Below, piece after piece: positions 26,080 to 63,517 of a DNA stretch of 64,000 nucleotides (the first letter of the stretch is position 1; every line of letters starts with the position of its first letter). The stretch is taken from assembly GCA_021823405.1 (NCBI GenBank), contig JAKAOA010000002.1, positions 12,434 through 76,433 on the forward strand, written 5' to 3'. This DNA comes from Bacteroidota bacterium (GTDB lineage Bacteria; Bacteroidota; Bacteroidia; JABEUT01). The position numbers and the translations under genes are program-made. The notes under the pieces were generated by a model that was not told the DNA's origin, made no database searches, and was given only the letters and a program-made list of their open reading frames with translations.

Positions 26080-26982
26080 ATGTGTGTAAAGATGCTTATG
26101 AGAAATAAAACAGGTACCTTTTTCCTTTTATCGATGGTTACAGGCATTGCCGGAGCCCAAATACGCGACTCCGCATCGCTCATCAGGGCGGCAGACAGCC
26201 TCAAAACTATTTACATTTATGCCGATACCGGCGCTGCGCTGAATCGCACCGATGAACAGGGCAGGAAAGAAGGGCTTTGGGAAAAGCGGTACCCCAATGG
26301 TAAGTTAAGGTACAGAGGTCATTTCAGGAATGGCATGCCGACAGGCATTTTCAAATATTACTGGGATAATGACAGCATCCAGAATATTTCTGTTTACACA
26401 GACAACGGCGCCGTTACGCATACGCAGATGTTTTACAGGAGCGGAGGCATTTATGCTACGGGCAAATTTGAAAATAAGCAGATGGACAGCTTGTGGAGTT
26501 TCTACAGCGAGTCGTCGAAACTTGTAACTACAGAGCTATATAAAAAGGGCAAGAAGGAAGGAAAATCAATAATATATTTTCCCGACGGGAACGTAATGGA
26601 TGTGCGAAACTGGCATGATGGCATGTTAAATGGTTTATGGCAAACATTTTATGACGACGGGCAATTACGGTTGCAATTAAATCTGGTAAACAATAAGAAA
26701 GAAGGCAGATTTGTAACTTATGGCGACGGCAGCCCTGAAGAACCGACAGTTGACGGGTATTATAAAAACAATGAGAAAGACGGCGATTGGTTATATACCC
26801 GCATGGATGGCAGCGGAACAGATACCCTGAAATATAAGAACGGGGTTCTTACCAATCCTCAACGGTTTGAGCTGTCGCAACACAACCTCGATTCGTTGAA
26901 GCTGAAATATCAGGATTTACAGGAGCAGCTTGACCATCCGGATGACGGCGTTGATGGTAACCTACGAAATAATTTCCGTTGA
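26080..26982 (+). CDS. Secreted MORN-variant repeat protein (YwqK-family, annotated elsewhere as toxin-antitoxin system YwqK family antitoxin)
   Basis: Repeated G.W..YY.NG.L...G.Y.NG..GL units. Signal peptide. Confidence 0.65.
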   Translation: MCVKMLMRNKTGTFFLLSMVTGIAGAQIRDSASLIRAADSLKTIYIYADTGAALNRTDEQGRKEGLWEKRYPNGKLRYRGHFRNGMPTGIFKYYWDNDSIQNISVYTDNGAVTHTQMFYRSGGIYATGKFENKQMDSLWSFYSESSKLVTTELYKKGKKEGKSIIYFPDGNVMDVRNWHDGMLNGLWQTFYDDGQLRLQLNLVNNKKEGRFVTYGDGSPEEPTVDGYYKNNEKDGDWLYTRMDGSGTDTLKYKNGVLTNPQRFELSQHNLDSLKLKYQDLQEQLDHPDDGVDGNLRNNFR

Positions 26983-53454: not shown

Positions 53455-53550
53455 GGGTATACACTTTTGGGGGTATTTTTTAGTTAAAAACTTGATATAC
53501 AGTATGTTAATGGTATACACAGGGTATACATTTGTATACCATTAGTATAC
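53455..53550. repeat. GGTATACC-box repeat, copy B: the 42-bp block shared with 24950-24992 plus four or five GTATAC-containing boxes in both orientations
   Basis: GGGTATACACTTTTGGGGGTATTTTTTAGTTAAAAACTTGAT is shared with copy A. GGTATACCATTAGTATACCC is the reverse complement of GGGTATACTAATGGATACC in copy A. Confidence 0.55.
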
Positions 53551-53551
53551 C

Positions 53552-54310
53552 CTATCGGGCTGTATCCTCTGCCGTCGCGAGCAAAATCTGTTCAATTTTC
53601 TTTAGCTGGTCGGGTCTTAATTTCTTTATCTCTTCCTGGCTCAAGCGCGTTTGATTAATCTGTATGTAGTTGTGTTGGTTTTCTACGTAATTTTTACTTG
53701 AACTACTCCCTGAATTTATGGCACCGGTTGCTTCAAGGAATAGTTTTATGGCTTTCATGTCGCCTCCCGATGCTTCACGGTATAATATGGCAAGTATTTT
53801 CCCGCTTACCAGTTTATAACGGTCCTTTTGTTCCAAATAGTTGGGATTATGTTCGTATTCCTTTAAATGTTTGTAAAGGGTTCTTCTGCTTACCCCCGTC
53901 ATCTCAAGCAGGTCCGATTTCCTTGGCATAATGCCGTGTTTGGCAATATACTTATTTATCGCCTGAACTATATTGGCATGGTTTGTTTCCCAAATATCGT
54001 CCTGGAAGCCGGCGTGCAGAACGGGAGCAACCCTTTCCAGAAATTCTTCCTGTTCCTCTCCTTTCAGTCGGTTTGCGTCACGGTTTATTTTATTAATTAA
54101 ATAATCCTTCTCTTCGTCGTTCAGTTGCAGGAAGTCCTTCCTTGTTATCTTTTCCTGCTCGTATAGGGCGTCTGCTTTCGCGAATAGGGCGGGACAGATG
54201 TCCTTTACCGGAGGATTGACGGTTGCAGGCTCGGAGGCATTGGAGCCGGGCGCGGCTGTTTTACCTGATACGGTTTGAATTTGTTGGCTGATGGCTTGAT
54301 TTGTTTCCAT
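53552..54310 (-). CDS. Hypothetical HTH-containing protein at the boundary of the accessory island
   Basis: Predicted HTH segment ...DLLEMTGVSRRTLYKHLKEY. Confidence 0.45.
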   Translation of the reverse strand: METNQAISQQIQTVSGKTAAPGSNASEPATVNPPVKDICPALFAKADALYEQEKITRKDFLQLNDEEKDYLINKINRDANRLKGEEQEEFLERVAPVLHAGFQDDIWETNHANIVQAINKYIAKHGIMPRKSDLLEMTGVSRRTLYKHLKEYEHNPNYLEQKDRYKLVSGKILAILYREASGGDMKAIKLFLEATGAINSGSSSSKNYVENQHNYIQINQTRLSQEEIKKLRPDQLKKIEQILLATAEDTAR

Positions 54311-54463
54311 GATGGTATGATTTTAAATGTTAATGATGACGCAAATATATACATTTAATGGCACATAATATATAATATGTTTATTTATTGAAAAAAGTAT
54401 TAAACAAATCCAATCATCTTTGGAAGATAGATTAGCAACGATAGGGTTGACTTACCCAACAAA

Positions 54464-54485
54464 AAAGCCCTATTTACAGGGCTTT
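54464..54485 (-). terminator. Intrinsic terminator hairpin AAAGCCCT-ATTTAC-AGGGCTTT (T-run on the minus strand). Copy 1 of a triplicated secA-terminator-like hairpin.
   Basis: The 38-bp block 54452-54489 is identical to 56768-56805. Confidence 0.6.
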
Positions 54486-54751
54486 AGTGTTACAGCGTAC
54501 CGGAAAAGTTCTTCAAAAGTTTCAAACTTTTCCTTCGGTTCCTTATGATGCTCCGGTAGTATTGATTTTGAAAAATGTTTTTCCCTGCCTTCTTTTCCTG
54601 AATAAATCTTTTTCTCAATGTTTGAAGCCCATACATAGCCGTGGTTACCAATCACAGTGCAAGAATAGTTTTCCCAGCTAAATAATCTTTCTATTTGGGT
54701 CTCACTAAATCCAAAATGAATTAATCTTTCATTTGTTAAGTCTTCAATCAT
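54470..54751 (-). CDS. Hypothetical small protein (93 aa), last gene of the cassette array. The C-terminus is encoded by the terminator hairpin.
   Basis: ORF only. No motif recognised. Confidence 0.3.
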   Translation of the reverse strand: MIEDLTNERLIHFGFSETQIERLFSWENYSCTVIGNHGYVWASNIEKKIYSGKEGREKHFSKSILPEHHKEPKEKFETFEELFRYAVTLKPCK

Positions 54752-54766
54752 TTAATATGTCTAACG

Positions 54767-55228
54767 TCATTGCTTTTTAATTGGTTTACCATTAGTATCA
54801 ACATCAATAGCATCATTACTATCGTCAATAAATGAGGTATAGAAATCCACCACCATATTATTTTCAAAACTAACTTCAAGAACATATTTATATTTTCCCG
54901 CCTCGCTAAAAGCATAATACGGGGCAAGAAAGTAATCAAATGTATAGTTCCCGCCATTGTGAATTATTTTATTGGGTTCTCCGAGAAATGCAAATATTTC
55001 TTTATTCGTATATTGTTTAATATTTATCCCATTAACCGATACTATTTTCCTTGTTATTGTGTCCTCTATCAAAGCACTGTCTCTGAAAAGGTTCTTTCCC
55101 AATGAATCAGCTTTCCACCTCGAAGAAAAATCACCATTGGTCATATTTTTAAAACCACCAATTAGATGAGGTTGCCCAAAAGCCACAACCGAAATGAAAG
55201 AGAACAATATGAGAAAAGCAGGCTTCAT
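54767..55228 (-). CDS. Secreted hypothetical protein (153 aa) sharing the signal peptide MKPAFLILFSFISVVAFGQ with the neighbouring MORN genes
   Basis: The first 55 nt of the CDS are identical to 55836-55890. Confidence 0.5.
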   Translation of the reverse strand: MKPAFLILFSFISVVAFGQPHLIGGFKNMTNGDFSSRWKADSLGKNLFRDSALIEDTITRKIVSVNGINIKQYTNKEIFAFLGEPNKIIHNGGNYTFDYFLAPYYAFSEAGKYKYVLEVSFENNMVVDFYTSFIDDSNDAIDVDTNGKPIKKQ

Positions 55229-55890
55229 TTTATTTCATTGCCGTTTTCATCGTAATTTTTTTGTTCCTGTAGAGTATCATTCCTGAAAAGTTTTTCACTC
55301 TTTAATTTTCCGTTTTCAAAGTACTCTTTTTCAACCCCATCTTTTTTGCTGTTCACTACTGGACTTTCTATTTTTAAATTACCATTTTCGTAATAACCCT
55401 TCTCAATTCCATTCTCTTCACCGTTCGCCCAGTGTCCTTCTACTTCCAGATTCCCATTTTCGTAATATCCTTTTAATGTTCCATTCCTTTTACCTTTTAA
55501 ATATTGTCTTTCATATTCTATTTTGCCGCTTTCATAGTATTGCCTTTCTGTGCCGGTTTCTTTTCCATTTTCATCGTAAGGAACCTCCAGGAATAATTTT
55601 CCTGTGAATTCGTCGTAAATTCTTCCTATTCCGCTCAATTTACCATTGTGGTAATTGCAAAGCATATAATATGGTGAATTGGTATCCTTTGAAATTTCTC
55701 CCCAATTATTTAGGTATTCCATCCATTCCCCTTCTTTTCTAAAAAGTTTTCGTTTGTTCTTAGCTTCAGCTTTAAATCTTGCTTCCCTGATTCTCCCGCT
55801 GTCATGGGGTTCTATCAGAGTTTTCAGAACTTCCTGCCCAAAAGCCACAACCGAAATGAAAGAGAACAATATGAGAAAAGCAGGCTTCAT
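55225..55890 (-). CDS. Secreted MORN-variant repeat protein (YwqK-family immunity-like)
   Basis: Repeats GEWMEY.., NGKLSGIGRIYDEF, SGKIEYERQYLKGKRNGTLKGYYENGNLEVEGHWANGEENGIEKGYYENGNLK. Start codon overlaps the upstream stop. Confidence 0.65.
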   Translation of the reverse strand: MKPAFLILFSFISVVAFGQEVLKTLIEPHDSGRIREARFKAEAKNKRKLFRKEGEWMEYLNNWGEISKDTNSPYYMLCNYHNGKLSGIGRIYDEFTGKLFLEVPYDENGKETGTERQYYESGKIEYERQYLKGKRNGTLKGYYENGNLEVEGHWANGEENGIEKGYYENGNLKIESPVVNSKKDGVEKEYFENGKLKSEKLFRNDTLQEQKNYDENGNEIK

Positions 55891-56549
55891 TTTATTCGAT
55901 TACCGTCCTTATATTCTACAACTCCTATTTTTTCTCCACGTTCATTATACCAAACATGCTCTCCTTCTAGCTTATCGTTCATAAATCTACCTTGACTTTC
56001 AATGTTACCATTTTTAAAATACCAAGTCCACATTCCAGTCTTTAAGCCCATTTTATACTCTCCTTCAATTTTTTTCCAACCATCAAATGATCTCCAAATA
56101 AAATTACCATTAAGTGAATCATCTTTAAGAGTACCATACCTAGTCTCTTCCTTTTGATAATCATATTCTTCAATCAAACCATTACGTTTCCCATCATGCC
56201 ATATTGAGAGTCGTATAAGTCTTCCTACGCTATCCCATTCTTTCCACTCACCTTCCTTATTATTGTTCTCATAAGAACCTTCTGACTGCTTCACCCCATT
56301 TGGATACCAGTTGCTCCATTTACCAATTAATGCCCCATTTTTAAAACAACCAACCGATTGAATTTTATTGTTAGAAAAATAGTAAGTCCATAAGCTGTCT
56401 TCTTTATTCAGTTTAAACCTGCCGATGCCTTTTAAATTATTTTTTAGGTATATTGTATCATTCTTTTTTTCAACGCCCAATGAATCCTGCTGCTGCCCAA
56501 AAGCCAAAAGCGAAATGAAAGAAAATAATATTAGTAAAGCAGGCTTCAT
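55887..56549 (-). CDS. Secreted MORN-variant repeat protein (YwqK-family immunity-like), paralog
   Basis: Signal peptide MKPALLILFSFISLLAFGQ. Repeats GEWKEWDSVGRL, NGLIEEYDY, KTGMWTWYFKNGNIESQGRF. Confidence 0.65.
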   Translation of the reverse strand: MKPALLILFSFISLLAFGQQQDSLGVEKKNDTIYLKNNLKGIGRFKLNKEDSLWTYYFSNNKIQSVGCFKNGALIGKWSNWYPNGVKQSEGSYENNNKEGEWKEWDSVGRLIRLSIWHDGKRNGLIEEYDYQKEETRYGTLKDDSLNGNFIWRSFDGWKKIEGEYKMGLKTGMWTWYFKNGNIESQGRFMNDKLEGEHVWYNERGEKIGVVEYKDGNRIK

Positions 56550-56551
56550 TT

Positions 56552-56697
56552 TATTTCATTGCCGTTTTCATCGTAATTCTTTGTTGCCCGCTTTCATTGA
56601 CGGTTTCAATTGTCTGAAACGGCAATGCAATACGAATAGGCGTAACCTTTTTGCCGTCTTTATACTTCCCTTCCCAAATAAGTTCGGTCATGATTAA
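56552..56697 (-). pseudogene. Short ORF / 3' remnant of a further cassette gene. The 28-bp TTATTTCATTGCCGTTTTCATCGTAATT at its end is identical to the 3' end of the 55225-55890 gene but is read in another frame.
   Basis: Nucleotide identity of 56551-56578 with 55229-55256. Confidence 0.35.
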
Positions 56698-56779
56698 TTA
56701 TATCTGTGTTGAATTTACGGCGGGGAAATTAGTGAAAAAAGCATTTTCAATGTGTGCTTTGCAAAATTTACCCAACAAA

Positions 56780-56801
56780 AAAGCCCTATTTACAGGGCTT
56801 T
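56780..56801 (-). terminator. Intrinsic terminator hairpin AAAGCCCT-ATTTAC-AGGGCTTT, copy 2. Probably the original secA terminator displaced by the insertion.
   Basis: Identical to copy 1. About 75 percent similar over roughly 90 bp to the secA-proximal region 63428-63520. Confidence 0.6.
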
Positions 56802-56843
56802 AGTGCAGTTCAGTATAAAATCAGTATATCTTTAGTTTGCGGC

Positions 56844-56860
56844 AGTTACTTACCGTGGCA
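56844..56860. repeat. attL core: 17-bp copy of the secA 3' terminus (reverse complement encodes NCHGK-stop)
   Basis: Identical to 63501-63517. Confidence 0.7.
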
Positions 56861-56910
56861 AAAACTATTTATACCTAATTCTATTGGATTGTAGCGTTTT
56901 GAGGTACAAA

Positions 56911-56932
56911 TAGGGTACAAAATAACTCAAAA
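56911..56932. repeat. Two GGTACAAA arm-type direct repeats (GAGGTACAAATAGGGTACAAAA), left arm
   Basis: The 22-bp string is identical to 63359-63380. Confidence 0.65.
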
Positions 56933-57089
56933 ATATCATTGGGAAAATGTTGCATAGAGTATTTCATTAGTTTGAAATTCAATTTGCTTTGAAATATTTA
57001 CCTTTTGAGAATCCGTGTTTTCTTTTGGTATTAATTTTCCCATTATCTTACCAAAAGACCTAATGGCTGATGGGGATGAATAATTCTTT

Positions 57090-57494
57090 TCAACCACTTG
57101 TAATAGTAAAAAGTTGTTTGTCTTTTTCATAAGCATATATTTTTTCAGCTATAATTAAGTAAACTATTACTTTCCAAATGCTTTCAAAATCTGAAAGTTT
57201 AAGATGTTTTTCCCTTTTTAATTGTATAAATTTTTGATAATCAGTTTCCCTAATATAATTTAATATACCGATGGTGTTGTCTATATTATTGTTAGTGAAA
57301 TATACCGCATACGCTGTTTTACCTGTACCCTTATCACCAATAATAAAATACGTAGATTGTTTCTTTATTTTATATAAAAATTCATTCTCTATAAATATTT
57401 TATTGAATATCTCTCTATTTTCTTTTTTTTTGTAATTCTCAGCATCATTAAATCCGAGATACAATTTTCCAATTGGAATTTTTTGCTTTTCCAT
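57090..57494 (-). CDS. P-loop NTPase (Walker A GDKGTGKT). Apparently disrupted: the reading continues in the +1 frame as ORF 56936-57136.
   Basis: Walker A motif. The overlapping out-of-frame ORF shares sequence through a homopolymer-rich segment at 57095-57130. Confidence 0.45.
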   Translation of the reverse strand: MEKQKIPIGKLYLGFNDAENYKKKENREIFNKIFIENEFLYKIKKQSTYFIIGDKGTGKTAYAVYFTNNNIDNTIGILNYIRETDYQKFIQLKREKHLKLSDFESIWKVIVYLIIAEKIYAYEKDKQLFTITSG

Positions 57495-57496
57495 AT

Positions 57497-58399
57497 TTAA
57501 TAAAATTTGATTTTATTCTGAATCAAATAAGGTTCTATCCTGTTTTTAGCGAGTTTTACATAGTCAGGACTAATATCGTAACCGACAAAATTTCTTTCAG
57601 ATTTTAGTGCAGAAATAGCAGTCGTCCCACTACCCATAAAAATATCAAGAATATTATCTCCTTTCAATGAATATAGCTGTATAAGACGATAAGGTAATTC
57701 TTCAGGAAACGGTGCAGGGTGTCCAATTTTCCTTGCACTTTCCGTATTCATGCTCCATATTGATTTTGTCCATTCCATGAATTGCTCTTTGGTAATAGTA
57801 TCCTTCTTCCCATTGGCTTTTCTTTGATAATCGCCTTTTGAAAATACTAAAATATATTCGTGTGTATCTCTTAATACCGGATTAGTAGCACTTTTCCAAC
57901 TACCCCAAGCCATTGAAACACCTGCACCTGCACCTTTAACCCAAATTATTTCGCCCCTCATTTTAAAGCCAATATCATTCATCATTTTAGATATATGGTC
58001 TGAAAGTGGAATATATGGTTTGCGTCCAAGATTGGCGACATTAATACATACTCTTCCCCCATTGACTAAAACCCTGAAAGTTTCAGTAAAAGAATTTTTA
58101 AGCAGGGTTAAATATTCTTGCAAAGTCAAATTATTGTCATATTCTTTTGTAACGTTATAAGGAGGTGAGGTAATCATTAAATGAATAGAATTGTCGGGTA
58201 ACTCTTTCATGTTTTCCGCCGTTCCTAAAATAAATGTATTTAAGTATTCTTTTGGAACTGAATTTTCGTTTGTGTTAATTTTCTTTTCTCCATTTATTAC
58301 AGAATACAGTTTAGAATTGTAAAACTTAGAGCTATCATGGTTTATACGTCCCCCTGTTCCGAATGAACTGGTCTTTGTGCCTGCTATTCTTGTTCCCAT
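57497..58399 (-). CDS. DNA methyltransferase, beta-class amino-MTase (motif IV SPPY precedes the C-terminal FxGxG), likely N4-cytosine specific
   Basis: MITSPPYNV catalytic motif. C-terminal DIFMGSGTT SAM-binding motif. Confidence 0.75.
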   Translation of the reverse strand: MGTRIAGTKTSSFGTGGRINHDSSKFYNSKLYSVINGEKKINTNENSVPKEYLNTFILGTAENMKELPDNSIHLMITSPPYNVTKEYDNNLTLQEYLTLLKNSFTETFRVLVNGGRVCINVANLGRKPYIPLSDHISKMMNDIGFKMRGEIIWVKGAGAGVSMAWGSWKSATNPVLRDTHEYILVFSKGDYQRKANGKKDTITKEQFMEWTKSIWSMNTESARKIGHPAPFPEELPYRLIQLYSLKGDNILDIFMGSGTTAISALKSERNFVGYDISPDYVKLAKNRIEPYLIQNKIKFY

Positions 58400-59031
58400 A
58401 ATTCAATCCATCTTTTGAAAGGTTTATATTCAATAGCTTCTTTATGCCAATTAATTGCAATTTTTAATGTTTCAGGTTGCGACAATAAATATTTCATTGC
58501 TTTTCCGGTCATTTCCACACCACGAGGGTTTGTCCCTTCCTTTGGTAATTTTATGTATTCCTTACGTCCTATTGTTTCAAGAGCTTTAATTTGCGTTTCT
58601 TTTGGAATGTAATAAAACCCGCCGCCGTTACTCCAGTTAATTTGAATAAAAATCATGTCGCATCCAGGATTATATTTTGCGCTAAACTCCTTTGCTTTTG
58701 CAGCATCAACAGTCCAAACCAACTTTACTCCATTTACCGCTCCTGTAATTGTCTTTATTGAAATAGGGCAACCAAATACCTTAACGTCCATTTCTGTTTC
58801 GGTGGTTGGTATTTCAGTTTCAACATTTGTAGTACCAAATTTATATAAAAGAAATGCAACTATTATCCTTTCTCTAATTGTTCCAACTTCCATTCCAATT
58901 TTACCAGCTCTTGAACTTTCAAGTTCGGCAATATGAAATAATTTTGGAAGTGTATTTTGAATTTTTAATATGGTCTCTTTTTCTTTAAAAATACCTTGAA
59001 TATTTGCCTTCATCGTGTAAATATTTTTCAC
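58384..59031 (-). CDS. Candidate type II restriction endonuclease partner of the methyltransferase (uncharacterised, 215 aa)
   Basis: 16-bp overlap with the MTase start. Possible (D/E)xK segment EMDVK. No other recognisable domain. Confidence 0.4.
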   Translation of the reverse strand: MKNIYTMKANIQGIFKEKETILKIQNTLPKLFHIAELESSRAGKIGMEVGTIRERIIVAFLLYKFGTTNVETEIPTTETEMDVKVFGCPISIKTITGAVNGVKLVWTVDAAKAKEFSAKYNPGCDMIFIQINWSNGGGFYYIPKETQIKALETIGRKEYIKLPKEGTNPRGVEMTGKAMKYLLSQPETLKIAINWHKEAIEYKPFKRWIELWEQE

Positions 59032-59289
59032 AAAGTAAGCAAAATTTATCCAAAATAATTTCTTTCTGTTAATAAATATACCTATGAACTAAGCATTAAC
59101 CCGCCCCCCTTCATAATATTGCACATTTTCCAAACGTAAATCTGCCGCCAAATGAAAATAATAATTCTTTTTCCCGAAAATAGAAGGTGCAATAATATCC
59201 TCCGATTATTCCACCCCGCCCTTATCAAAAAAATACCCTGCCCCGCCCTGTACGGTTTGGGTAGTAATTCTTTTTCACAAGGTCTTTGA

Positions 59290-60357
59290 TTAATTTAAAA
59301 CCGTGTCAATACAGTTTTCTAACAGGGATTCCAGTTCCGGCGGCTTTGAAAAGCCAATAAGCGGAAAATCTAAGTCATCATTAATATAGTCGCCCGTTTT
59401 CGGGTCTAAGTGCCATATTTTATAATCCCCTACAGGTGTGAATGTTACTTTTTTGGGCTGTTCAGGTAGAGTAAAACCAAAACCTTCAAAAACGTGCTTT
59501 TTATCCAGTGCTTTTAAAATATTATAAAGTGCGTGGGCGTATATTGTAGGGGCTGCCATTCCTTGCAATTTTTTATCATTATCCGGCTCGGTGAATATTT
59601 TTCCGCAATACTTAATTAATTCAATTAACGCTCCTTGCATATTCCATACTGGCTTTACCTTTTGTGCTCCTGGGTTTGCATATTTCAAAGTCCATAGTTT
59701 ACACCATTCCTTTTTAAGAGTGTCGCCTATTTCCTTATTCTTAACTATGATATGGAAATGTGGGTTGTAAGTATGCTTTTCAGGGTTAAATCCACACTCT
59801 AACGTCCTTATCCCTATTAACTTTTTACATTTTCCTTTTTTATAACCTCTGTCATATTTGTCAATGATTACAGCAATAGCCCGACACATACCGTCAATAT
59901 ATTTTTTTAAGTTTTTGACTTTTTGCGCTTTTACTGTTAGTGTTACAAAATAAGCGTTTCCCCATTCGTTTTGAAAATAGGGATAGTATCGGTTCAATAA
60001 GTCAGCTTTGCGGTTACCGCAACATAACGGACAAAATCGCAGCTTACAATATTTCCCGTGTAGCTTTCCCCCAGTTGTATAGATTTTACCTAAACAATGG
60101 TAAGCGTTCCAACACTGTTTAATGAAATCATAATCCCTGTATTCTTTTGCCACGTCAATAAGTTTTAGCACTAAGGCGTTACTAATCATTCTCCTTTTAG
60201 CCAACTTTTGTAACCCTGTATTGTCGGCAATATCTTTTCCTTTCCCCTTAACTATTATTACAGGGTTTCGGGAAGGTTTGACATATAGAGGTGTACGGTG
60301 AACTGCTAATGTATAGATTTCCTTCCCCAAAGGGTTTCGTTTTCGCTCTATTCTCAC
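59290..60357 (-). CDS. rep: Rolling-circle replication initiator / HUH endonuclease with a Cys-rich zinc-finger-like segment
   Basis: Three RCR motifs in order: FVTLTV, HTYNPHFHIIV (HUH) and LIELIKYCGK (YxxK). Cys cluster CKLRFCPLCC. Confidence 0.7.
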   Translation of the reverse strand: MRIERKRNPLGKEIYTLAVHRTPLYVKPSRNPVIIVKGKGKDIADNTGLQKLAKRRMISNALVLKLIDVAKEYRDYDFIKQCWNAYHCLGKIYTTGGKLHGKYCKLRFCPLCCGNRKADLLNRYYPYFQNEWGNAYFVTLTVKAQKVKNLKKYIDGMCRAIAVIIDKYDRGYKKGKCKKLIGIRTLECGFNPEKHTYNPHFHIIVKNKEIGDTLKKEWCKLWTLKYANPGAQKVKPVWNMQGALIELIKYCGKIFTEPDNDKKLQGMAAPTIYAHALYNILKALDKKHVFEGFGFTLPEQPKKVTFTPVGDYKIWHLDPKTGDYINDDLDFPLIGFSKPPELESLLENCIDTVLN

Positions 60358-60359
60358 AG

Positions 60360-60692
60360 CTACCTTCTTTTACCCTTTACATAGTCCTTTGCTTCGGCGG
60401 CTATTTCTGTAACCGTTTTTTTACGCCCAGCCTTTATATATTCCATCAAATCTTGCCTTGAGAAATACAATCGGTGGGAACGCTTACATACTGGGATTTC
60501 AGCTTTGTGTACTTTGGTGTACAGGGTAGCTTTAGAAAGTTTTAGAAACTCTGCGGCCTGCTCAATGGTTAAAAGCTCATCGGCTTCGGGCTGAGGCTCA
60601 CCACTCCTTTCAAGTAATAACCGCTTTATCTCACTTACTTCATTAGTAAGCTGGGTAACGGCTTGGGGTAAATTTTCAAATGTGATTTCCAT
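60360..60692 (-). CDS. Excisionase-family helix-turn-helix DNA-binding protein (xis-like)
   Basis: HTH LTIEQAAEFLKLSKATLYTKVHKAEIP typical of Bacteroidetes mobile-element excisionase/HTH-17 proteins. Adjacent to int and rep. Confidence 0.65.
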   Translation of the reverse strand: MEITFENLPQAVTQLTNEVSEIKRLLLERSGEPQPEADELLTIEQAAEFLKLSKATLYTKVHKAEIPVCKRSHRLYFSRQDLMEYIKAGRKKTVTEIAAEAKDYVKGKRR

Positions 60693-60765
60693 TGTACTAT
60701 CAGTTTTAAATTTGATAGTGCAACAGTATAGGGGGCTTTTAGGGGCAACAATAGGGGCGTACGCC

Positions 60766-62184
60766 CTATTTTAGTTTTTGGTAGTCGTTTTGTACCGTTT
60801 CTTTATGCAGGTGTGCCGTATAGCGTTCCTTATTTTCCGTAGTGTTTTTAAGCAATGAACTGATATTACCCTTTACTGCCCTGCCATCTTTATCAGAGTT
60901 AAGCCACTTGCCAATTTCCTTGTTCAGTTTATATTTTGTCTGCAAATGGTTTTTCTCTAAATGCTTTAAAAAGCCCAAATAATCAAACATTGCTATACAG
61001 TAAGGTAGTTCATTTGAGCTTATCAATTCTACCAACTTTTCTTTATTTTCTGCCGTTAATTGCTTGACCATTGGTAAATCAAAGAAGCCATATTTACCAA
61101 ATACAATCTTTAATTTATCCGCTTTCGTTTCTGTTTGCTTGGGCGGTGCGGGTTTTAATATGGGAATAAGTTCATCAATAAACCTTTTTTCATCAGCATA
61201 CCATTTCTTTAACATTTTCCTGTATCGGTGTTCCTCATTGGGTGAACTATTTTTATACCCTTGTTGAAGTTCCAATTTCCTATTGTTTATTATGAGTTCC
61301 AGTTTGATTTTATTTGCATCCGTAATAAGCCCCTTTTCGTATAATTTCAACCCGTTTATCTGCGTTAAAAGATTATCAGTTAAGCTTATTAATGCTTCAA
61401 ATAGGCTGCCTTTTGTATGCAGCTTTGCTTTTGCAAATCCACTATACTTGTTTACCTCTGGCACACTGTTCAATATAGGTAATTGATTTTCAAAATGCTG
61501 TTTAAGGGGGCTGAAAAAGCTTAATTCAAAGGGGAATATCCTAAGCCAGTCCTGATAAACCTTGTATAAAACATTCAAATCAGTTGATGTTGCAGTCGGT
61601 TCTGAAATATCTATTCTATGTGGTAGCTCGCTTTGAAATAGCGTCTTTGAAGGCTGATTGGCCTCTGTTACGGTTTCTTCTGTGATAGAGTACTTGTCAA
61701 TAAATTCAGTCAATTTTTTCACTTTAGACAATTCACCCTGAGTTAAGTCGCCTTTGGGCTTTTTAATAAGCTTTTTTACTTTATCTAAATACAAGTGCAG
61801 CCCTACGGCTGGCTGCCCAAAACTTGTAACATTATACTCAATATAGTCCGTTATTTCTTTATACCAATTAGGTGAATCTATCTGTTTAGAAATATGGTAT
61901 TCAGTATATGAAAGCTGCTTAATAATCTTGTCAGCAATACCATTATAGTTATCTTTCAGAAACCACCACTTACCATCGTATTCTTTATGTATTGCGCAGC
62001 AATTTGGGAATTTCTCAAACCATTTTACTGCCTCATCATAAACGCCTTTATGAAACGGACAGCAATTAGGTAACTGCTCTTTTGTTTCGGGATTGGCGGG
62101 GGGTTCATAACCTGCGGGAGGCTTTACCTCAAATGCTTGAATAAAAAAGTTTGCAGCATCAATTTCAACAAAGGGTTTGTCCAT
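60766..62184 (-). CDS. Hypothetical 472-aa element protein with Cys/His cluster CCPFHKG...CCAIHKEY
   Basis: ORF between int and xis. No recognised domain. Confidence 0.4.
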   Translation of the reverse strand: MDKPFVEIDAANFFIQAFEVKPPAGYEPPANPETKEQLPNCCPFHKGVYDEAVKWFEKFPNCCAIHKEYDGKWWFLKDNYNGIADKIIKQLSYTEYHISKQIDSPNWYKEITDYIEYNVTSFGQPAVGLHLYLDKVKKLIKKPKGDLTQGELSKVKKLTEFIDKYSITEETVTEANQPSKTLFQSELPHRIDISEPTATSTDLNVLYKVYQDWLRIFPFELSFFSPLKQHFENQLPILNSVPEVNKYSGFAKAKLHTKGSLFEALISLTDNLLTQINGLKLYEKGLITDANKIKLELIINNRKLELQQGYKNSSPNEEHRYRKMLKKWYADEKRFIDELIPILKPAPPKQTETKADKLKIVFGKYGFFDLPMVKQLTAENKEKLVELISSNELPYCIAMFDYLGFLKHLEKNHLQTKYKLNKEIGKWLNSDKDGRAVKGNISSLLKNTTENKERYTAHLHKETVQNDYQKLK

Positions 62185-62195
62185 TGCAATGTTCT

Positions 62196-63311
62196 TTACA
62201 AGTCCAGTTTTATTTTATCAGCCGCTTCCCGTTTCGTTTGGTCAATAATCTTAGCGTAAATCATAGTTGTTTTTAGTTCACGGTGTCCCAGTAATTTTGA
62301 TACCGTAAATATATCAGTTCCCTTACTAAGCTGTAATGTTGCGTAGGTGTGCCTAAAGCTATGAAAGGTTATATTTTTTGTAATGCCCGCTTTAAGTACC
62401 CAGCGTTTTAAATGAAAATTCATAAATGCAGAGTATTGTAGCCCCTCAAAAACGCTTTCATCAGGTAGCCCAGGTTTGCCCAATATATTATACGCCTGTT
62501 CTGAAATTGGTAATACCTCAACCCCCTTTGTTTTCTTTTGCCTGAAACGCAAATAATAACCTTCGGCCTTGCTATGCTGTACCTCTGCCCAAGTAAGCTT
62601 TTGAATATCTGAAAATCTTAACCCTGTAAGCGAAGCAAATAAGGCGGCCTGTTTAAGTAATGGTAAACTACATTCGGTTTTTGCCAAAGTGTTCAATTCT
62701 TCCATTGTAAGAAACTGTCTTTCAGTTTCAGCCTCCTTTATTCTTTCGACTTTTGCACTAATATCAGATTTTATCCGCCCGTCTTTGTAGGCTTGCTTTA
62801 AAGCCGCTTTTAATTTGTTAAAGTATGAAAAGGCCGTATTCTGCGATATAGGTAGCTTACTTCTTATTCGTGGTTCTTTTAGAAGGTATGCTTTGAAGTC
62901 ATTGCAGAATTTCGGGGTAATGTCTGTAAACCGTATAGTACCCCCGCTAAATTCTTTTAAGTAATGCAGGGCGCAAAGCCATATTTCACGGTTTCGCTGG
63001 TTATGTTTATCAGCTAATTCTTTAAAGTAGTCAACAAAATTAGCGTTAAGGTCATTCGTAGAAAGAAACCCATACTGACCGTTTTGAATTTCAATTTGTC
63101 GGGTTGCCCGTATATTTTCTGCAAGGGCTTTTGTATCTATGTTATGCTGTTTGTCAAAGGGTGTCTTTGGCTTATCATACAAATGAAGCCCTAAAAACTC
63201 CCTTCGTGTAAGTTCTCCCGTGTCAGGATGAGTTATAGGTGGGTAGAAATCTAAATACAGGCTTTTACGGTTGCCTGAAATGTCTTTTGTTCTTAGTTTA
63301 ACTTTTGTCAT
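62196..63311 (-). CDS. int: Tyrosine site-specific integrase (phage-integrase family)
   Basis: C-terminal catalytic region HSFRHTYATLQLSKGTDIFTVSKLLGHRELKTTMIYAKI (H-x-x-R ... Y). Confidence 0.9.
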   Translation of the reverse strand: MTKVKLRTKDISGNRKSLYLDFYPPITHPDTGELTRREFLGLHLYDKPKTPFDKQHNIDTKALAENIRATRQIEIQNGQYGFLSTNDLNANFVDYFKELADKHNQRNREIWLCALHYLKEFSGGTIRFTDITPKFCNDFKAYLLKEPRIRSKLPISQNTAFSYFNKLKAALKQAYKDGRIKSDISAKVERIKEAETERQFLTMEELNTLAKTECSLPLLKQAALFASLTGLRFSDIQKLTWAEVQHSKAEGYYLRFRQKKTKGVEVLPISEQAYNILGKPGLPDESVFEGLQYSAFMNFHLKRWVLKAGITKNITFHSFRHTYATLQLSKGTDIFTVSKLLGHRELKTTMIYAKIIDQTKREAADKIKLDL

Positions 63312-63329
63312 GGCTTAAAGTGTTATTGA

Positions 63330-63379
63330 GGTACAAACGAGGTACAAAAAATAATTATGAGGTACAAATAGGGTACAAA
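63330..63379. repeat. Four GGTACAAA arm-type direct repeats immediately upstream of int (right arm)
   Basis: GGTACAAA at 63330, 63341, 63361 and 63372. Confidence 0.65.
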
Positions 63380-63435
63380 AGTAAACAAAATAAGCAACTA
63401 TTGGAACAAAACAGGTATTAAATATGAGCAATAAA

Positions 63436-63458
63436 AAAGCCCTCTATTAAAGGGCTTT
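63436..63458 (-). terminator. Intrinsic terminator of secA (stem AAAGCCCT / AGGGCTTT, loop CTATTAA, then TTTTTTAT on the minus strand). Copy 3, the variant hairpin.
   Basis: Located 45-70 bp downstream of the secA stop. Confidence 0.65.
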
Positions 63459-63500
63459 ATTGGGGTTTACTATAAAATTAGTATAAAACTACTTTGTGTT

Positions 63501-63517
63501 AGTTACTTACCGTGGCA
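63501..63517. repeat. attR core: 17-bp direct repeat overlapping the secA stop codon
   Basis: Identical to 56844-56860. Confidence 0.7.

Follow-up and report, generated by a model that had tools for sequence, protein, structure and literature searches.

Tandem gene families with a conserved leader-coding 5′ region and divergent mature parts, among which recombination occurs, include the vlp/vsp genes of Mycoplasma, the lpl genes of Staphylococcus aureus and the paralogous lipoprotein genes of Borrelia. All of these encode lipoproteins, and in some of them phase variation is brought about by site-specific inversion. The CIME beside ICESt1 in Streptococcus thermophilus is an att-flanked segment that has no recombinase and adjoins an integrative element. 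The Bacillus subtilis protein YwqK acts in the cytoplasm and has no signal peptide. Here we analyze an array of three genes, named A, B and C, on the minus strand of a 64,000-nucleotide stretch of a Bacteroidota genome (the window; assembly GCA_021823405.1, contig JAKAOA010000002.1, positions 12,434 to 76,433). The genes start with near-identical signal-peptide-coding ends, and the array is probably an ordinary, fast-evolving set of tandem paralogs encoding exported proteins, with partial gene conversion.

In contrast to the lipoprotein families, the array has leaders of the signal peptidase I (SPI) type, every gene is complete and there is no sign of an expression switch. Two further systems resemble it. 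In Fusobacterium, small MORN_2 proteins with a signal sequence (PF07661, COG2849 'YwqK') likewise occur as many, often clustered paralogs (10.1101/534297). The proteins studied here differ in being limited to uncultured soil and peat Bacteroidia and in having their own DSGFTNKAEAKN motif and NYDENGNEIK tail, while the array itself is part of a small module of foreign DNA and has one member that is not a MORN protein. The rAID-1 arrays of Bacteroidales (Ross et al., 10.1101/471110) similarly consist of co-directional, small, low-GC acquired genes, with boundary repeats and a tyrosine recombinase nearby; here, however, no gene of the array appears to match a known immunity family by sequence.

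The three genes and their common 5′ end

Genes A (55887-56549, 220 aa), B (55225-55890, 221 aa) and C (54767-55228, 153 aa) are contiguous open reading frames (ORFs) of the minus strand, all in one direction. The first-pass annotation of the window had each start codon overlapping the previous stop; indeed, a 4-nt ATGA overlap is present at both junctions (55887-55890 for A/B and 55225-55228 for B/C). A and B combine a Sec/SPI-type leader with MORN_2 repeats, while C has the leader of B in front of a non-MORN body. An identical block of 55 bp had been reported at the starts of B and C. The block is real, but it is 62 nt long (55173-55234, where C starts, repeated without a mismatch at 55835-55896, where B starts), and consists of 6 nt upstream and the first 56 coding nt. 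No match of this length is expected by chance. The identity stops at the Gln codon just after the predicted signal-peptidase site AFG↓Q. A carries a close variant of the leader (56494-56549), as had also been noted, with 50/56 nt matching; three of the six changes are synonymous and three are not. The view that all three genes begin with the same 19 codons is thus correct for B and C, which both encode the leader peptide MKPAFLILFSFISVVAFGQ, and incorrect for A, which encodes MKPALLILFSFISLLAFGQ.

The closest relatives of C, P0002 and P0131, are 51-56% identical to it in the mature part and are encoded by genes that stand alone in chromosomal contexts. Their signal peptides differ from that of C (MKSKTTLIFSLIIFISLTTLTAIGQ and MKFKLIFIVCFSFTLNTFGQ, respectively). 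Since the nearest relatives have other leaders, it appears that the leader of C was not inherited with its body but gained by recombination. A native C-type leader, found at locus L002, ends in ATTGGGCAG, whereas the B-type leader ends in TTTGGGCAG; the 7-nt microhomology between the two ends could have guided the crossover.

The leaders of A and B are also far more similar than their bodies. Nucleotide identity is 86-93% in the leader (86% over the first 20 codons) vs. 30-55% in later bins. At positions where the two proteins have the same residue, the codon is also the same at 14/17 sites within the first 45 codons vs. 18/46 in the body (p = 0.0024). Selection at the protein level alone is insufficient to explain this contrast.

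What the repeat finder recognizes is an 89-nt junction unit, made up of the leader and, before it, the preceding gene's 3′ end. Although no full gene precedes A, 29 nt from the 3′ end of B are repeated immediately upstream of it (56550-56578, equal to 55229-55257), within a perfect 43-nt block that crosses the junction (56536-56578, equal to 55215-55257). This copy had been seen earlier as a 28-bp duplication of the end of the middle gene in another frame, a correct observation apart from its length. The junction upstream of A agrees with the B/C junction over the upstream 43 nt, and the A/B junction agrees with the B/C junction over the downstream 62 nt. This mosaic points to a former gene order B-A-B-C, created by unequal crossing-over and trimmed later.

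Comparable homogenization was seen elsewhere. Among 33 adjacent pairs of B-family genes in other metagenome-assembled genomes (MAGs), five (at L014, L017, L024, L026 and L057) show high 5′ similarity, with amino-acid identities of 0.76-0.87 in the 5′ part vs. 0.35-0.52 in the body. Together with the different leaders of the relatives of C and the junction mosaic, these pairs bear out the earlier proposal that the shared leader is a mark of recombination. By sequence, the locus has the features of a tandem paralog array with partial gene conversion, with an identity tract that includes synonymous sites.

The encoded proteins

A and B score 46.4 and 68.8 bits, respectively, against the Pfam family MORN_2 (PF07661), where a protein was counted as a member if its total score exceeded 29.6 bits, the gathering cut-off of Pfam. 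They are 30% identical to one another (E 4e-14). A is strongly diverged and a homolog search returned just two weak matches, while B has more than 300. Members of the B family are mostly about 160-370 aa long, of secreted type and from Bacteroidia; typically, a leader of the type MKxxLIxIxS...AFGQ is followed by DSGFTNKAEAKN, and the C-terminus reads NYDENGNEIK. The family is centered on a small number of MAGs of uncultured Bacteroidia (soil, peat and boreal), with 6-8 separate loci in individual MAGs and tandem arrays of seven (L015), six (L025) and five genes (L010 and L013). In these arrays, neighboring genes often overlap or nearly abut. A and B would thus be diverged paralogs within a MORN_2 family that is much expanded, often in tandem. 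In an alternative frame, the conserved 3′ end of the family reads ...TMKTAMK (junctions in L010, L025 and L027); where this frame has no stop, ORF callers extend the N-terminus of the next gene (e.g. MKTAARLNN..., MIGRKKPNTLMKTAMK...), and start-codon annotation in B-family arrays is therefore often wrong.

The first-pass annotation assigned all three genes to the MORN/YwqK type, which is true of A and B, but C has no MORN match. Indeed, C has no match in Pfam, NCBIfam, PADLOC or PHROGs, and its family is rare (27 representatives at E <= 0.001 among 1.84 billion proteins). An AlphaFold model built from a 28-sequence alignment reached a predicted local distance difference test (pLDDT) score of 87.9, compared to only 46 for a run on a two-sequence alignment. 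The predicted fold is BamE/BLIP-like; a Foldseek search of the PDB with the model returned nothing significant. C-type domains also occur in fusion proteins with MORN repeats or the TonB C-terminal domain (P0139, P0140, P0151 and the protein encoded at 10861-12105 of L013): the partner is TonB_C in four members of the family and MORN repeats in at least two (P0139 and L013 10861-12105). The B and C families have a common N-terminal module, consisting of the signal peptide and an FTNK motif, and the C subfamily also ends in an ENGNEIK-like tail. C seems to come from a rare sister family that has only the N-terminal module in common with the B family, and this common stretch suggests a periplasmic module shared by both.

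The leaders of all three proteins consist of MKP followed by a 14-residue hydrophobic stretch (mean Kyte-Doolittle value 2.7), contain no cysteine and end in AFG↓Q. These properties fit SPI cleavage under the Q-rule described for Bacteroidetes (PMC5837995), and we infer that A, B and C are exported via Sec and processed by signal peptidase I. MORN_2 domains have also been found fused to TonB_C (P0115) and to a DarT toxin domain. A, B and C are probably periplasmic protein-binding modules.

Remnants, module and neighboring element

The B-type 3′ end upstream of A (56550-56578, minus strand) lies out of frame within a 46-aa ORF (56551-56691), which reads it as ...ITMKTAMK followed by the stop codon, instead of NYDENGNEIK and stop. 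Residues 2-36 of this ORF match positions 20-57 of the 616 positions of the PADLOC model MTase_III (E 6e-4), which identifies 56584-56691 (minus strand) as what is left, after truncation, of a Type III restriction-modification methyltransferase gene: its first ~36 codons. Only the full-length PADLOC model recognized it; searches of Pfam, NCBIfam, PDB (phmmer) and plasmids (tblastn) gave no match. The ORF is a deletion scar, in which the start of the methyltransferase gene was fused to a B-type 3′ end, with an AACAAA microhomology at 56579-56590 as a plausible breakpoint. A 16-nt inverted repeat (56552-56567 vs. 56617-56632, 94% complementary, 49 nt apart) lies just upstream of the start of A and joins the B-type remnant to the methyltransferase remnant; it is probably due to chance.

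A perfect 38-bp direct repeat, missed in the first-pass annotation, brackets the remnant, A, B, C and a further ORF of 93 aa (54470-54751, minus strand), and its edges are sharp. The upstream copy (56768-56805, minus strand) contains a stem-loop (56780-56801) followed by a T run, and the downstream copy (54452-54489, minus strand) a terminator-like hairpin (54464-54485). The upstream copy is probably the original secA terminator, as a diverged version of the secA 3′ end precedes it. On the minus strand, the two copies are the sole terminator-like sites from 53.4 to 57.6 kb. Since they bracket the genes, A, B and C most likely form a single transcription unit that ends at the downstream copy. 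The 93-aa ORF, a one-member cluster with no homologs or domains found, has its last seven codons inside the 38-bp repeat, which makes it a likely fragment of a truncated gene at the edge of the module. The core of the repeat had no match in JGI metagenomes or IMG/VR. The bracketed module is 2.3 kb long and encodes no integrase or other recombinase. Its GC content is 34.6%, compared to 40.2% in the next kilobase and 45-50% in the flanking chromosome. The 40% GC stretch in the gap between module and chromosome encodes a 252-aa protein (53552-54310) with weak helix-turn-helix and small-terminase-like matches (E 5e-5 to 7e-4), which may be what remains of a still older insertion.

On its other side, the module adjoins an integrative element of 6.6 kb (56861-63500, minus strand, 35.1% GC), which is described here as context and is not part of the array. 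The 17-mer TGCCACGGTAAGTAACT, corresponding to the last secA codons, forms its att-like right boundary (56844-56860, minus strand) and is repeated exactly at 63501-63517, giving two copies vs. 0.12 expected with up to three mismatches. A diverged duplicate of the secA 3′ end (56768-56860, ~95 nt, roughly 70% similarity) runs into the terminator. The exact 17-mer and this duplicate together indicate that the element spans about 56861-63500 and was inserted at the 3′ end of secA. The duplicate also rules out the array as cargo of the integrase element. The array instead lies outside the element, in a separate module, with foreign segments having accreted at the secA 3′ end.

Like the CIME beside ICESt1, the island is split by three direct att-like copies into an integrase element and an integrase-free module. 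However, the pairs of copies have different exact cores here (the 17-mer and the 38-mer), and the module is just 2.3 kb long and contains gene remnants. The module is a decayed att-flanked unit next to an integrative element, and the arrangement as a whole resembles accretion of a recombinase-free att-flanked module beside an integrase element. No exact match of 10 nt or more and no significant local alignment was found between the left end (53.3-53.7 kb) and the secA-side att region. Ahead of a glycosyltransferase gene, at the far left end of the low-GC island, is a cluster of GGTATAC palindromic repeats (53490-53555).

The element itself encodes a tyrosine integrase (62196-63311), a 472-aa protein with no relatives found in IMG/VR, an HTH_17 protein and a Rep_1 protein. 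At 57497-59031, an intact gene for a ThaI-type endonuclease (PF15514, E 1e-90) overlaps a gene for an N4/N6 DNA methyltransferase, and the two are predicted to be a Type II restriction-modification pair. The end of the element (56936-57494) holds a 134-aa ORF that matches only the first 104 of 454 positions of a Sll1717-family P-loop ATPase model; an overlapping 66-aa ORF follows it, suggestive of a truncated or frameshifted defense-type gene. Beside the integrase gene, four direct GAGGTACAAA-like repeats (63330-63400) may be arm-type binding sites.

The window also contains a distant fourth YwqK-like gene, as the first-pass annotation had proposed. It encodes a 300-aa protein (26080-26982) with a MORN_2 match (E 1.8e-13) and is located beside the gene for a CCG-domain protein. 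Its leader is unrelated, the surrounding chromosomal DNA has 44% GC, and local identity with A and B is only 23-35%. The gene is not connected with the array.

Competing explanations and what the array means

We propose that the near-identical 5′ ends are recent tracts of non-reciprocal recombination, left either by gene conversion or by unequal crossing-over followed by deletion. The transfer from B to C (62/62 nt) would be the youngest event, and would have given C a leader foreign to its own family, while the A/B tract (50/56 nt) would be older. As the B-type 3′ end upstream of A indicates, the array would once have been longer, with the order B-A-B-C, until a deletion cut it back and fused a B-type end to the first ~36 codons of the methyltransferase gene. 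The 2.3-kb low-GC module with its 38-bp terminator/att-like repeats, beside the 6.6-kb element, would then represent foreign segments accreted at a single integration hot-spot. Taken as a whole, we consider this explanation rather likely.

Several observations weigh against it. Pooled over all 33 tandem pairs, synonymous-codon identity was not significantly higher in the 5′ part than in the body (53% vs. 50%, p = 0.075). A much lower value for 5′ conversion (p = 7e-6) came from pairs picked for their 5′ similarity and is hence biased. The unselected test suggests that homogenization is sporadic and not a family-wide rule, and general 5′ gene conversion throughout the family was rejected on this basis. 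Neither an empty site nor a variant of the array turned up, so that the order of events is deduced from one haplotype, and the att-like copies are not assignable to one insertion or the other. The strict Bacteroidetes promoter TTTG-N17-23-TAnnTTTG was not found upstream of the array, and export of the three proteins is a prediction from sequence alone.

The alternative that survives best is an orphan immunity array similar to the acquired interbacterial defense (AID) or rAID arrays, acquired horizontally and kept without a cognate toxin, in which the exported proteins would neutralize periplasm-acting toxins of competitors, delivered by a type VI secretion system (T6SS) or otherwise. We regard this as possible, though unlikely. 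The foreign, low-GC DNA beside an integrase element and restriction-modification genes would suit it, as would the small size, exported type and fast divergence of the proteins, and JGI labels homologs of B 'antitoxin component YwqK'. The first-pass annotation, which inferred orphan immunity, correctly reported that no toxin gene is present; no ORF between 53.5 and 63.3 kb contains a toxin domain, whereas a YwqK-type antitoxin of a polymorphic toxin system would be encoded next to its cognate toxin, of the YwqJ/LXG or another type. The absence of a toxin is not in itself an objection, as orphan arrays are toxin-free by definition (10.1101/471110). However, no toxin-type domain recurs beside family members either: a Pfam census of 145 flanking ORFs at 78 related loci gave 165 families, none of them more than four times, and no toxin family was among the 25 of these 165 that were listed. 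The B-family contexts examined consist of housekeeping genes (clpX/LemA, dxs/gatB, GT4/peptidase). The fusions of MORN_2 and the C domain to TonB_C, and of MORN_2 to DarT, point to a generic binding module. The inference of orphan immunity thus goes back to a COG-derived name, and does not find support in toxins next to family members. The name 'YwqK' is an annotation transfer, and in contrast to the cytoplasmic B. subtilis protein, A, B and C all carry a hydrophobic leader.

Comparison to described immunity systems leads to a similar view. The rAID-1 arrays are defined by a XerD-like recombinase directly 5′ (at least 44% identity to BF9343_RS08045), at least two co-directional genes with a GC content of 41% or less, and repetitive intergenic sequences (10.1101/471110). 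The four co-directional ORFs at 34.6% GC are the only one of these properties seen here. The sole integrase (62196-63311) is 5.6 kb away, in a separate att-closed element, and the genes overlap by 4 nt and leave no intergenic DNA, the repeat being made of the coding 5′ end and the preceding 3′ end. The sole positive lead for an immunity function is the fold-level match of C to BtiO, the immunity protein that acts in the periplasm against BteO, a T6SS effector of B. fragilis (PDB 9uu1; PMC12541434). Sequence identity between the two is 14%, BtiO was not recovered by Foldseek with the C model, and no BteO-like gene was seen at the locus; the fold is also that of BamE, BLIP and OsmE. In the literature consulted, we found no link between MORN repeats and a T6SS immunity protein, and the secreted MORN2 proteins are without an assigned function (10.1101/534297). 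A, B and C might have an immunity role.

The conserved ends of the genes, i.e. the leader-coding 5′ part as far as the Gln codon and the 3′ part with the NYDENGNEIK tail and ATGA overlap, might alternatively serve as built-in homology arms, permitting unrelated bodies to be swapped or captured into a co-transcribed array of exported proteins without any recombinase. C would then be an example caught in the act, with its B-type leader and, in its subfamily, a B-like N-terminal motif and C-terminal tail. We think this improbable. If true, homologous or microhomology recombination would diversify a repertoire of periplasmic binders, possibly immunity proteins, that rides on small att-flanked modules.

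A dedicated, integron-like cassette system, in which a site-specific recombinase recognizes the leader or the 89-nt junction, is already largely refuted and now very improbable. The repeated unit does span every gene junction, a tyrosine integrase lies 5.6 kb away, and the C subfamily resembles a B-type frame (FTNK module, ENGNEIK-like tail) with another body. However, the integrase is part of a separate element with its own att copies, and no integrase adjoins the array. The junctions contain no inverted repeat or attC-type palindrome and no stable fold, their RNA or single-stranded DNA being less structured than shuffled controls (z = +1.6, +2.4 and 0.0). The leader, earlier suggested as a possible hot-spot for cassette exchange, does not act as a widespread signal for cassettes: neither the 56-nt nor the 29-nt degenerate pattern of the exact leader had a match in GTDB representative genomes or JGI metagenomes. 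In addition, 28 of the 33 tandem pairs elsewhere show no 5′ homogenization.

That the shared 5′ ends reflect purifying selection, acting on translation initiation or the signal peptide, and not recombination is equally improbable. The family consensus MKxxLIxIxS...AxGQ and the DSGFTNKAEAKN motif that follows are indeed conserved at the protein level, and the junction RNA is unusually unstructured, as start regions should be. Yet selection on the protein cannot produce 62/62 identical nt, also at synonymous sites, in two genes with bodies that show no alignment, and the orthologue-level relatives of C carry other leaders.

Finally, although the source is a metagenome assembly, collapsed or chimeric repeats, which the first-pass annotation had named as grounds for refutation, are the least credible origin of the shared ends and very unlikely, since every reading frame is intact, the repeats (at most 89 nt) are shorter than the k-mer of 141 used for the independent ENA assembly L001, and that assembly carries the identical array and matches the window base for base over 18.8 kb, except for three single-nucleotide polymorphisms, all in the integrase gene.

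If the immunity explanation were true, acquired interbacterial defense arrays would no longer be confined to the Bacteroidales of the gut; the evidence at hand falls short of showing this, and the annotation 'YwqK antitoxin' should not be taken as evidence of an immunity function. The locus also brings to light that secreted MORN_2 proteins have undergone a large expansion, so far unstudied, in uncultured Bacteroidia of soil. Under the explanation we favor, by recombination between tandem neighbors, the array would provide a clean and datable case in which a signal-peptide-coding 5′ end has moved from one gene to the next, even onto a gene encoding a different fold.

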